Below the pieces are notes generated by a model, which did no database searches, was not told the DNA's origin, and saw only the letters and a list, made by a program, of their open reading frames with translations. From Escherichia phage vB_EcoM-E33: DNA of 64,000 bases. The DNA is taken from the sequence record OL780484.1; one strand, given 5' to 3'. The stretch's first letter is position 1; every line of letters starts with the position of its first letter. Shown in pieces: positions 54,470 to 59,814 of the stretch. A program made the translations under genes and the position numbers.

Positions 54470-55051
54470 ATGATTAAATTAGTGTTCGCTTATTCTCCAA
54501 CTGAAACGGTTGATGGCACAAAACAAAATGCATTTGGTTTAGGTGACGGGCTTCCATGGGGACGAGTTAAAAAAGACCTTCAGAATTTTAAAGCACGTAC
54601 TGAAGACACAATCATGATTATGGGTGCTAAGACATTCCAATCATTGCCTGGATTACTCCCTGGGCGTAGTCATATTGTAGTTTGTGACCTTGACCGTGAT
54701 TATCCTGAAACTAAAGATGGTGATTTCGCCCATTTCTATATCACATGGGCACAGTACGTAACCTTTATTACAGGTGGTGAAATCCAAGTATCAAGTCCTA
54801 ATACGTTCTTTGAACCTATGCTTGGACCAAGCTCTAAAGTAAGCATAATCGGTGGCCCTGCTCTGTTATACGCGGCGTTGCCTTATGCTGACGAAGTAGT
54901 TGTTTCTCGTATTGAGAAATGCCACCGTGTGAATTCTACGGTTCAATTGGAAGAAAACTTCCTTCATGAAATTCGTCAACGTGAAATGCTTGAAACCCAT
55001 TGGTATAAAATAGACGAACTTACTACACTGACGGAAACAGTATACAAATGA
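54470..55051 (+). CDS. frd: Dihydrofolate reductase Frd
   Basis: 193 aa; [16 protein letters not shown]…[16 protein letters not shown]… matches T4 Frd; ATG 54470 after SD GAGGAAA (ORF-track frame extends upstream). Confidence 0.93.
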
Positions 55052-55905
55052 AACAATACCAATTTTTAATTAAAGATATCCTGGAAAATGGCTACGAAAC
55101 TGACGACCGCACAGGCACCGGTACAATTGCACTGTTCGGTACTAAATTACGTTTTGATTTAACTAAAGGCTTCCCGGCGGTAACAACTAAAAAATTAGCA
55201 TGGAAAGCCTGTATTGCTGAGCTCCTTTGGTTCCTTTCAGGTTCGACTAATGTTAATGACCTTCGCTGGCGCACTCATGGCACGCGTACTGAAGGTAAAA
55301 CTATTTGGGACGAAAACTATGAAAATCAGGCAATTTCTCTGGGGTATTCTGATGGCGAACTGGGTCCTGTGTACGGGAAACAATGGCGAGATTTTGGTGG
55401 TATCGACCAGGTTGTAGAGATTGTCGAACGCATTAAGAAAATGCCTAATGACCGTCGTCAAATCGTATCAGCATGGAACCCGGCAGAAATTAATAAGATG
55501 GCTCTTCCTCCATGCCACTGTTTTTATCAGTTCAACGTTCGTAATGGTCATCTTGACCTCCAGTGGTACCAACGTTCTGTTGACGTGTTCTTAGGATTGC
55601 CATTTAATATCGCCTCTTACGCCGCTCTAGTGCATATTGTAGCTAAAATGTGTAATCTTATTCCAGGCGATTTAGTGTTCTCAGGCGGCAATACGCACAT
55701 CTATTCTAACCATATTGAACAATGCCAAGAAGTATTACGCCGTGAGCCTAAAGAGCTTTGTGAACTCGAGATTGATTTACCGGAAGAGTTTATTCTTTGG
55801 GACACCAAGACTCAACTATCCTGGATTGATTCAATGAAGCCGTCTGATTTCGTTCTTAAAGGTTACGAATCACACCCTACTATTAAGGCTAAAATGGCTG
55901 TATGA
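55048..55905 (+). CDS. td: Thymidylate synthase Td (uninterrupted, no intron)
   Basis: 285 aa continuous ORF with TS motifs (…PPCHCFYQF… catalytic Cys region); start overlaps frd stop. Confidence 0.93.
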
Positions 55906-55966
55906 AAATTCAAATAATCTGTACTCTGTTTTTGGTTATTATGGTTGGGCTGAATTTGGTGCTATA

Positions 55967-58582: not shown

Positions 58583-58635
58583 TAAAATCTGATTATAATT
58601 GACTCATGGATGAGTCACTAACAAATGAGAATAAC

Positions 58636-59814
58636 ATGTCTACAGTTTTTAATACCACCCCAGTTGATGTTTTAGTCGAACCGATGTTCTTTGGTTCAGG
58701 ATTGGGTATTGCTCGTTATGATATCCAACGCCATAAAGTATTCGAAGAGCTTTGTGAGAAGCAGTTGAGTTTTTTCTGGCGTCCAGAGGAAGTTAACTTG
58801 ATGATGGATGCTGCCCAGTTTAATAAGCTTCCACAATTCCAGCAAAATATTTTTACCAATAATCTGAAGTATCAATCACTTCTGGATAGTATCCAAGGAC
58901 GTGCTCCTTCTGCTGCACTTCAAGCCTTGATTTCAGACCCTAGCCTTGATACATGGGTGGCTACATGGACCTTTAGTGAGACTATTCACTCTCGTTCATA
59001 TACCCATATCATGCGTAACCTCTATACAGACCCGTCAAAGGTATTTGATGAAATTCTGTTAGATGACGCTATTATGAAACGTGCTGAATCTATTGGTCGT
59101 TATTACGACGACGTTATTGAGAAAACTCGCTATTGGCAGAATGCTAAAGCTGATATCGAATACCAAAAAGAAATTAATGCAGACGAAGACGATATTGAAG
59201 ATGCTATTGAGCATGAGATGTATTGGAAGCGTGAGCTAATGAAATCCCTTTACCTTTGCCTTCATGTAATCAACGCATTGGAAGCTATTCGTTTTTATGT
59301 ATCTTTCGCATGCACCTTTAACTTCCATAAAAACATGGAAATCATGGAAGGTAATGCTAAGATTATGAAGTTCATTGCACGTGATGAACAGCTTCACCTT
59401 AAAGGTACTCAGTACATTATTCGTCAACTCCAACTTGGTACTGACGGTGACGAATGGGTTAAAATTGCTCAAGAGTGTGAACAAGAAGCAGTTGATATTT
59501 TCATGGAAGTTAACCGTCAAGAAAAAGAATGGGCTGCTCACCTGTTCAAAGATGGTACTTGCCCTGGATTAAATACTCAGAACATGGGTGCTTTTGTCGA
59601 TTACCTGACAGTTTCTCGTATGAAGCAATGTGGCTTACCGTGTCCTATTACTGATGCTCCTGCCCGCCATCCTTATCCTTGGATTCGCGAATACCTGAAC
59701 TCTGATGCTGTACAGGCTGCTCCTCAGGAAGTGGAAATAAGTTCTTACCTTGTAGCACAAATTGATAACGATGTCGATGAAAAAGTAATGGCATCGTACA
59801 AGAAATATTTTTAA
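58636..59814 (+). CDS. nrdB: Ribonucleotide reductase small subunit NrdB (uninterrupted, no intron)
   Basis: MSTVFNTTPVDVLVEPMFFGSGLGIARYDIQRH… matches T4 NrdB; start at ATG 58636 by homology (ORF track begins 58606). Confidence 0.9.
   Translation: MSTVFNTTPVDVLVEPMFFGSGLGIARYDIQRHKVFEELCEKQLSFFWRPEEVNLMMDAAQFNKLPQFQQNIFTNNLKYQSLLDSIQGRAPSAALQALISDPSLDTWVATWTFSETIHSRSYTHIMRNLYTDPSKVFDEILLDDAIMKRAESIGRYYDDVIEKTRYWQNAKADIEYQKEINADEDDIEDAIEHEMYWKRELMKSLYLCLHVINALEAIRFYVSFACTFNFHKNMEIMEGNAKIMKFIARDEQLHLKGTQYIIRQLQLGTDGDEWVKIAQECEQEAVDIFMEVNRQEKEWAAHLFKDGTCPGLNTQNMGAFVDYLTVSRMKQCGLPCPITDAPARHPYPWIREYLNSDAVQAAPQEVEISSYLVAQIDNDVDEKVMASYKKYF

Follow-up and report, generated by a model that had tools for sequence, protein, structure and literature searches.

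The frd-rnlA nucleotide-metabolism cluster of Escherichia phage vB_EcoM-E33, a probably uninvaded Dhakavirus locus with candidate homing sites for T4-type mobile elements

Background

Are the introns and the homing endonuclease gene that interrupt the td-nrdA-nrdB region of phage T4 present at the corresponding positions of Escherichia phage vB_EcoM-E33, and, if not, are these positions naive target sites, resistant alleles or scars of loss? The window analysed was a 64,000-nt stretch of sequence record OL780484.1. We read the locus as the frd-td-nrdA.1-nrdA-nrdB-denA-rnlA nucleotide-metabolism cluster of a JS98-like Dhakavirus (T4-type) in uninvaded form, in which the positions of the T4 elements would be unoccupied target sites; the probability of this reading was put at about 0.9.

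Gene organization of the cluster

The genes and sites of the locus are listed in Table 1. Over positions 54400–60300 the window was 97.5% identical in DNA sequence to phage WG01, with gene order alike. The start of td overlapped the 3′ end of frd by 4 nt, and rnlA and denA also overlapped by 4 nt. The window td was 100% identical to that of phage LQ5 and ~92% identical to that of WG01, and its nrdA showed 81% DNA identity to T4 nrdA. nrdA.1 is a variable gene, and positions 55967–56255 of the window had no counterpart in LHE83. An additional ORF of ~650 nt was seen at the denA-rnlA junction of IME540 and IME281.

Table 1. Features of the frd-rnlA locus (positions are those of the window)
Feature	Position	Strand	Evidence
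frd, dihydrofolate reductase, 193 aa	54470–55051	+	Pfam DHFR_1, E 3.4e-19; colinear with T4 frd
td, thymidylate synthase, 285 aa, uninterrupted	55048–55905	+	Pfam Thymidylat_synt 1–266/266 in one stretch, E 2.7e-99
I-TevI homing site equivalent, −27 to +12	55570–55608	+	Alignment to the ends of T4 exon 1 and exon 2
nrdA.1 homologue, DUF4326, 97 aa	55967–56260	+	Pfam DUF4326, E 7.9e-22; annotated NrdA.1 in WG01 and Bp7
nrdA, class Ia ribonucleotide reductase large subunit, 751 aa	56327–58582	+	Pfam ATP-cone, Ribonuc_red_lgN and Ribonuc_red_lgC
Promoter-like element, TTGTAA, 18 nt, TATAAT, across the nrdA stop codon	58570–58599	+	Consensus scan, 10/12
nrdA-nrdB spacer, 53 nt, no ORF	58583–58635	+	Homologous to the 51-nt T2 spacer
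Small hairpin, 7-bp stem TGACTCA/TGAGTCA, 4-nt loop, containing ATG 58606	58600–58617	+	Conserved in T2
nrdB, ribonucleotide reductase small subunit, 392 aa, uninterrupted	58636–59814	+	Pfam Ribonuc_red_sm in one stretch
MobE nicking site equivalent, nrdB nt 122–126	58757–58761	+	Sequence comparison
I-TevIII homing region equivalent	59281–59331	+	Alignment to T4 and Bp7 exons
denA, endonuclease II (GIY-YIG), 145 aa	59818–60255	+	Pfam GIY-YIG, E 7.9e-5; annotated denA in JS98, Bp7 and WG01
rnlA, RNA ligase 1, 382 aa	60252–61400	+	Pfam RNA_lig_T4_1 and T4_Rnl1_C

Two starts were considered for nrdB. The 392-aa form, beginning MSTVF, agreed in start and length with nrdB of WG01, LHE83, IME281 and T2. 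Starting at the first in-frame ATG (58606), as annotated in IME540, would give 402 aa and a 23-nt gap to nrdA; this start was set aside because the same four phages start at MSTVF, because the ATG sits within the spacer hairpin, and because in T2 the ATG at the matching position meets a stop after 8 codons. The distance between nrdA and nrdB, earlier estimated at ~50 nt, was accordingly 53 nt, or 23 nt if counted to 58606.

The ORF immediately following nrdB was considered as a homing endonuclease gene beside nrdB and ruled out: it is denA, found in all relatives and in T4, and its product is an enzyme of host-DNA degradation, not a homing endonuclease.

td and nrdB are uninterrupted and mobE is absent

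From the letters of the sequence, an earlier note had described td and nrdB as intronless and the interval between nrdA and nrdB as lacking mobE, and all of this was borne out. td was a single ORF matched over its full length by one Pfam stretch, nrdB was a single ORF with an equally unbroken Ribonuc_red_sm match, and the spacer held no ORF. Alignment to the T4 exon junctions gave a window colinear with the T4 exons, the T4 introns mapping to 55596|55597 (td) and 59311|59312 (nrdB), and the window was contiguous at both positions.

Group I introns were also sought with Rfam. A search at gathering scores was uninformative, the T4 and Bp7 introns being missed too. In E-value mode, both T4 introns were detected as positive controls (40.3 bits, E 9e-8; 35.7 bits, E 2e-6), and Intron_gpI (RF00028) gave no match at E ≤ 1 in 54400–60300 and none at E ≤ 0.01 across the entire window, indicating that neither td nor nrdB contains the intron core that would speak against the intronless reading. 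Positions 55048–59814 yielded neither a group I intron core nor a remnant of a homing endonuclease. The sole Rfam match in the region, on the minus strand, was to SNORA8, a eukaryotic snoRNA family (E 0.066), and was regarded as a chance match.

The empty state is the usual one

An empty td, nrdB and spacer is the normal state and was already known; T4 is the exception, and the contrast with T4 therefore carries little weight. T4 is an outlier with 15 homing endonuclease genes, introns and free-standing genes being patchy among T4-like phages (PMC2988022, PMC2993671), and JS98 and JS10 were reported to be without homing endonuclease genes (Petrov et al. 2010, PMC2993671). In counts that contain duplicate GenBank/RefSeq records, a td intron was found in ~260 phage records and an nrdB intron in ~129, versus at least 872 with the locus. 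Among the ~40 Dhakavirus phages listed, insertions between nrdA and nrdB or in nrdB, as called from the matches listed, were confined to Bp7, LHE83, fDHCT2 and CF-SP2, ~90% of the listed members being empty.

The nrdB intron site is occupied in Bp7

In alignment with the T4 and Bp7 exons, the nrdB site of the window matched at every position from −31 through −6 and differed at −5, −2, +2 and +20. Cleavage by I-TevIII takes place at −14/−16 (PMC1865063), which corresponds to 59298/59296 of the window, within the conserved stretch. The differences at −5, −2 and +2 were near the insertion site, inside the I-TevIII footprint. Around the insertion site the window, WG01, LHE83 and IME281 had the same sequence.

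Bp7, ~95% identical to the window, carried a 1088-nt intron encoding a full-length I-TevIII exactly at the nrdB junction. On either side of this intron, almost every informative site between about −74 and +20 (~95 nt) carried a T4-type base, with Dhakavirus-type bases beyond. Read from the Bp7 genome, the position is a real insertion site in Dhakavirus.

The nrdA-nrdB spacer and the MobE target

Alignment of the spacer with T4 broke at 58586/58641, the window having 54 nt and T4 697 nt (mobE and nrdB.1). TATAAT was found at 58594–58599 with an upstream hexamer; shuffled sequence yielded a mean of 1.2 promoter-like sites versus 1 here. A scan of the nrdA-nrdB spacer region gave 0 terminator-like sites. 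In phages lacking mobE, the nrdB middle promoter lies in the nrdA 3′ end or the spacer and the terminator is absent (PMC2790892), and the promoter-like element and lack of terminator-like sites at the spacer would fit this layout. At the position of the window hairpin T2 carried TGACTCATGGACGAGTCA, and the RNA fold of 58583–58645 had an energy of −10.7 kcal/mol, with a z of only −1.5. Read by eye, a MotA-box-like sequence, AAGCTTTA, lay at 58573–58580, 13 nt 5′ of TATAAT.

MobE nicks have been mapped at nt 122–126 of T2 nrdB, and codon 42 of nrdB is AAG in T2 and in every mobE-less phage examined (PMC2790892). Codon 42 of the window was AAG (58759–58761), followed by CAGTTG as in T2, and the flank of the codon read GAGAAGCAGTTG versus GAAAAGCAGTTG in T2. 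T4 has CGG at this codon; LHE83 has AAG but 9 flanking differences in nt 121–150. By this comparison, codon 42 and its flank in the window resemble the T2, MobE-sensitive type.

The spacer is occupied by mobE and nrdB.1 in T4, by a mobE-like gene in LHE83 and by a dam methyltransferase gene in fDHCT2. The LHE83 gene encodes a 213-aa protein (HNH and NUMOD3) that is 61% identical to T4 MobE and 90% to T4 NrdB.1. The nrdB of LHE83 was 74–86% identical to that of the window over most of its first ~150 nt, 92–96% by nt 250 and 100% over nt 251–750, and its divergent first ~200 nt covered the MobE nick site. On the evidence of the LHE83 genome the spacer, too, is a real insertion site in Dhakavirus. 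The proposal of potential empty homing sites thus holds at two of the three sites, the nrdB intron site through Bp7 and the nrdA-nrdB spacer through LHE83.

These two genomes also bear on whether the introns and/or mobE were once present in the lineage of the window and were precisely lost, the sites being scars of that loss. Homing endonuclease genes are generally modelled as passing through cycles of gain, decay and loss, and decay at this locus does occur: the T4 I-TevIII is a deletion derivative, and T4 mobE/nrdB.1 looks fragmented. Against such a history, the window had no remnant sequence, its coding sequence being exactly colinear and its spacer homologous to that of T2. The occupied Bp7 and LHE83 bear foreign flanking tracts, which point to gain, and most listed Dhakavirus members are empty. 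In its flanks the window showed the type common in Dhakavirus, with no difference from WG01 or IME281, and no T4-type co-conversion marks were seen in its exon flanks. Precise loss was judged very improbable, and a locus that was not invaded is the reading we retain.

The td site

For I-TevI, the cleavage motif is 5′-CNNNG-3′, located 23/25 nt 5′ of the intron insertion site (PMC2988022). In the window, CAACG was found at 55570–55574, i.e. −27 to −23. The td protein was identical to that of T4 across the intron site. At the DNA level 29 of the 39 homing-site positions were identical to T4 in the window and 33 of 39 in T2; all 10 window-T4 differences were synonymous, and those at −10, −4, −1, +1, +3 and +6 fell within or close to the ~20-bp region of primary binding centred on the insertion site. 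The window td is plausibly an empty I-TevI homing site. Among ~50 listed td records and the record spans of 40 listed Dhakavirus phages, no Dhakavirus td was seen to carry an intron.

The same differences could mean that the empty sites are resistant rather than naive, synonymous changes in td, and possibly in nrdB, blocking binding or cutting by I-TevI or I-TevIII. The window departs from T4 at 10 of the 39 td positions and T2 at only 6, all ~50 listed Dhakavirus td genes are uninterrupted despite the many phage records with a td intron, and at nrdB there are differences at −5, −2 and +2. However, base changes in its site are described as generally tolerated by I-TevI, a preference for CNNNG excepted (PMC2988022), and the window retains CAACG at the right distance. 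At nrdB, the sequence surrounding the site is the same in the intronless WG01, LHE83 and IME281 as in the window, and Bp7 is a Dhakavirus genome that was invaded with co-conversion. Resistance was considered unlikely.

A further reading has two separate parts, namely that the spacer is a general hot spot for insertion, open also to non-nuclease cargo, and that the td allele is an I-TevI-resistant variant. fDHCT2 and Salmonella phage CF-SP2 have a D12-class Dam methyltransferase in the nrdA-nrdB spacer. Were the first part true, the window would be a naive allele, and non-nuclease genes might enter by hitch-hiking on MobE-type nrdB nicks; the second part, if true, would explain why a td intron is unseen in Dhakavirus. 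This further reading seemed to us doubtful, and naive, unoccupied sites remained the preferred interpretation.

Predicted course of invasion and significance

In Dhakavirus, the mosaic sequence flanking the Bp7 intron and the mobE-like gene of LHE83 is read as the mark of past invasion, and from sequence we infer that the sites of the window would be susceptible to homing endonucleases. In a mixed infection with an element-carrying phage, the endonuclease would cut or nick the window DNA, with cuts expected at −23/−25 from the td insertion site and at −14/−16 from the nrdB insertion site, and with MobE acting at nrdB nt 122–126. Repair using the donor phage as template would introduce the element and, with it, some of the donor sequence beside it.

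The locus was correctly described but is unremarkable, and has little importance by itself. Its use is as a clean uninvaded reference allele for Dhakavirus: set beside Bp7 and LHE83, it makes their co-conversion tracts readable at single-base resolution. Loss of markers around td and nrdB would be predicted in mixed infections with intron- or mobE-carrying phages, which bears on the design of phage cocktails.

Comparison with known systems

T4 (NC_000866) has homologous genes in the same order as the window, and at neither intron insertion site does the protein sequence differ. Its td intron measures 1017 nt and carries I-TevI, and its nrdB intron measures 598 nt and carries a defective I-TevIII. 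T2, which served as the classical recipient for homing and marker exclusion in crosses with T4, resembles the window in its intronless td (861 nt), intronless nrdB (1179 nt) and lack of mobE, and in a 51-nt spacer in which TATAAT is followed by the hairpin TGACTCATGGAYGAGTCA. Unlike the window, T2 belongs to the genus Tequatrovirus (T4, also a Tequatrovirus, shows ~77–82% DNA identity to the window here), and its frd and td are separated by an additional ORF, its td and nrdA by both nrdA.2 and nrdA.1.

The closest counterparts were WG01, QL01, PSD9, IME281 and JS98, which share with the window the gene order, uninterrupted td and nrdB, a 53-nt spacer and 93–99% DNA identity, and differ from it by small mosaic differences; nrdB of the JS98 type has a 39-nt deletion, and JS98 and IME281 have ~200 additional nt between frd and td. 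Bp7 and LHE83 are Dhakavirus phages with 95–98% backbone identity that present the sites of the window in occupied form; in LHE83, 638 nt replace the 54-nt spacer, the first ~200 nt of nrdB are foreign and nrdA.1 is missing.

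Gene cluster and its relatives

The gene order of 54470–61400 (see table) and of its flanks (gene 59, gene 32, frd.2, frd.3 and frd.1 upstream; alc downstream) was that of T4. DNA identity was 97.5% to Escherichia phage WG01 and 93–98% to other Dhakavirus (JS98-like) members. The region was mosaic: its td was 100% identical to that of phage LQ5, 99.8% to LHE83 and only ~92% to WG01, which was nonetheless the best full-length match across the whole 5.9-kb region.

Genes of the cluster in the window
Gene	Coordinates	Strand	Product	Pfam match
frd	54470–55051	+		full length, one stretch
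td	55048–55905	+	285 aa	Thymidylat_synt 1–266/266, one stretch
nrdA.1/DUF4326 homologue	55967–56260	+		full length, one stretch
nrdA	56327–58582	+	751 aa	full length, one stretch
nrdB	58636–59814	+	392 aa (402 aa from in-frame ATG at 58606)	full length, one stretch
denA	59818–60255	+		full length, one stretch
rnlA	60252–61400	+		full length, one stretch

The nrdA.1 homologue was a variable gene, absent from LHE83 and, judged by record span, seemingly also from MX01, AnYang, IME08 and others. frd and td overlapped by 4 nt (55048–55051); ~200 nt more were found there in JS98 (L004 1541–1744), IME281 (L008 882–1085) and several other relatives, and a 348-nt ORF in T2. denA and rnlA also overlapped by 4 nt (60252–60255), where IME540 (L005 6153–6800) and IME281 (L008 6289–6939) had an extra ORF of 215–216 aa that gave no match in a Pfam search and may be another mobile insertion. 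Gene 59 (51467–52120) and gene 32 (52210–53115) were only 89 nt apart (52121–52209), while in T4 their junction is occupied by segG, a GIY-YIG homing endonuclease gene; thus this was another unoccupied endonuclease site.

Absence of introns and mobE

As the earlier note had said, T4 (NC_000866) has introns in td and nrdB and has mobE between nrdA and nrdB. The td intron is 1017 nt with I-TevI, the nrdB intron is 598 nt with a defective I-TevIII, and nrdB.1 accompanies mobE. The window differed, confirming the observation that td and nrdB were intronless and that mobE was absent from a gap of ~50 nt. Both genes were single ORFs with one-stretch Pfam matches, and their alignments to the T4 exons broke at 55596/55597 (td) and 59311/59312 (nrdB) and were otherwise colinear. 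The nrdA stop ended at 58582, and taking 58636 as the nrdB start, as in WG01, LHE83, IME281 and T2, gave a spacer of 53 nt; by alignment, 54 nt (58587–58640) stood against 697 nt in T4.

A group I catalytic core, which would have contradicted this, was sought with the Rfam model Intron_gpI in E-value mode. No match was found at E ≤ 1 in 54400–60300, nor at E ≤ 0.01 in the whole window, and the T4 td and nrdB introns, run as positive control, scored 40.3 bits (E 9e-8) and 35.7 bits (E 2e-6). At Rfam gathering scores the window was blank, but the T4 and Bp7 introns were missed as well, so that run was uninformative. The Intron_gpI gathering score is 50 bits and both ORF-bearing T4 introns score below it (35.7 and 40.3; T4 sequence L001, 5509–5749 and 10596–10826), indicating that default Rfam scans are unfit to exclude phage group I introns.

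The nrdB insertion site

Bp7, a Dhakavirus ~95% identical to the window, contained a 1088-nt nrdB intron exactly at 59311/59312, encoding a 268-aa HNH protein annotated as I-TevIII. At positions that separate T4 from intronless Dhakavirus sequences, Bp7 was T4-like almost throughout from about −74 to +20 of the insertion point, and mostly Dhakavirus-like beyond that tract. Homing is expected to leave co-conversion of flanking exons (PMC2988022), and this tract had that pattern, indicating that a Dhakavirus-type genome was invaded at this position. Over −31 to −6 the window had the same sequence as the T4 and Bp7 exons, from which it differed at −5, −2, +2 and +20. The proposal of an empty homing site in nrdB thus gained an occupied counterpart at the same nucleotide. 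In the Bp7 record (L002), nrdB exon 1 had a 1-nt deletion at ~nt 184 of the gene (TTT to TT) and was annotated as two ORFs; the deletion is a sequencing artefact or, if genuine, a frameshift in an essential gene.

The nrdA-nrdB spacer and the MobE site

In LHE83, also a Dhakavirus, the spacer was replaced by a gene for a 213-aa HNH+NUMOD3 protein, 61% identical to T4 MobE (residues 1–117) and 90% to T4 NrdB.1 (residues 131–213). Its nrdB was 74–86% identical to that of the window across most of the first ~150 nt, 92–96% by nt 250 and 100% from nt 251 to 750. The MobE nick site, nrdB nt 122–126 in and beside codon 42 (PMC2790892), fell inside this divergent region. Codon 42 is AAG in T2 and all mobE-less phages examined (PMC2790892) and CGG in T4. 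It was AAG in the window (58759–58761) with a T2-like flank (GAGAAGCAGTTG vs GAAAAGCAGTTG in T2), and AAG in LHE83 but with many changes nearby. The junction was supported as a potential empty site by its occupation in LHE83 and by the window's AAG.

Comparison of T4 (L001 6717–7417) with LHE83 (L006 4190–4831) placed the LHE83 protein in three reading frames of T4 DNA: residues 1–117 in the mobE frame, 100–126 in a third and 136–213 in the nrdB.1 frame (90% identity). By these alignments, T4 mobE (141 aa) and nrdB.1, which has 83 aa and a NUMOD3 match, resemble pieces of a single, longer HNH+NUMOD3 endonuclease; the main mobE paper does not mention nrdB.1 (PMC2790892).

The 51-nt T2 spacer was homologous to that of the window, TATAAT being followed directly by a short hairpin in both. 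In the window the two elements spanned 58594–58617, an arrangement kept in T2 across genera; the 7-bp hairpin, TGACTCA/TGAGTCA, enclosed the in-frame upstream ATG (58606), and its fold z-score was only −1.5. No terminator-like site was found in the spacer, agreeing with the published description of mobE-less phages (PMC2790892). In fDHCT2 (L007 4778–5581) and Salmonella phage CF-SP2 the spacer held no homing endonuclease gene but one for a D12-class N6-adenine DNA methyltransferase of Dam type (Pfam MethyltransfD12, E 1e-19), so this possible hot spot takes non-nuclease cargo too.

The td insertion site

The window td kept CAACG at −27 to −23, a CNNNG motif at I-TevI distance. From −27 to +12 it matched T4 at 29 of 39 positions (T2, 33 of 39), all differences leaving the protein unchanged. 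None of roughly 50 Dhakavirus td genes in the matches listed was interrupted (spans 858–864 nt). Thus the td site is a plausible I-TevI target, judged from sequence, with no natural precedent in Dhakavirus among those matches; that it is instead a resistant allele seems rather unlikely.

Origin and frequency of the empty state

td and nrdB were uninterrupted, their sites were colinear with occupied sites in T4, Bp7 and LHE83, and the occupied relatives carried foreign flanking tracts. Precise loss of introns and mobE from an ancestor that had them is very improbable, given the absence of remnants and the appearance of the occupied genomes as recent gains. The interpretation of these sites as potential empty homing sites was supported as worded. 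In a mixed infection, I-TevI, I-TevIII or MobE from a donor phage would be expected to cut or nick the window DNA, after which repair using the donor as template would import the element.

Of the listed Dhakavirus records that cover the 3′ end of nrdA plus nrdB, insertions were confined to four phages: 1088 nt extra in Bp7, 584 nt extra in LHE83, and about 790 nt extra, with a Dam methyltransferase, in fDHCT2 and CF-SP2. In the phage collection, where at least 872 records matched the locus, td-intron-like sequences occurred in ~260 records, nrdB-intron-like sequences in ~129 and genes closely related to mobE, at least 60% identical to that protein of LHE83, in ~100. The empty state is not unusual but normal, and an uninvaded td-nrdA-nrdB cluster was already known for this phage group. 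JS98 and JS10 are listed without homing endonuclease genes (PMC2993671, Table 5), T4 has been called an oddity for its 15 (PMC2988022), and T2 has the same layout as the window, with td (861 nt) and nrdB (1179 nt) both continuous and a short spacer between nrdA and nrdB.
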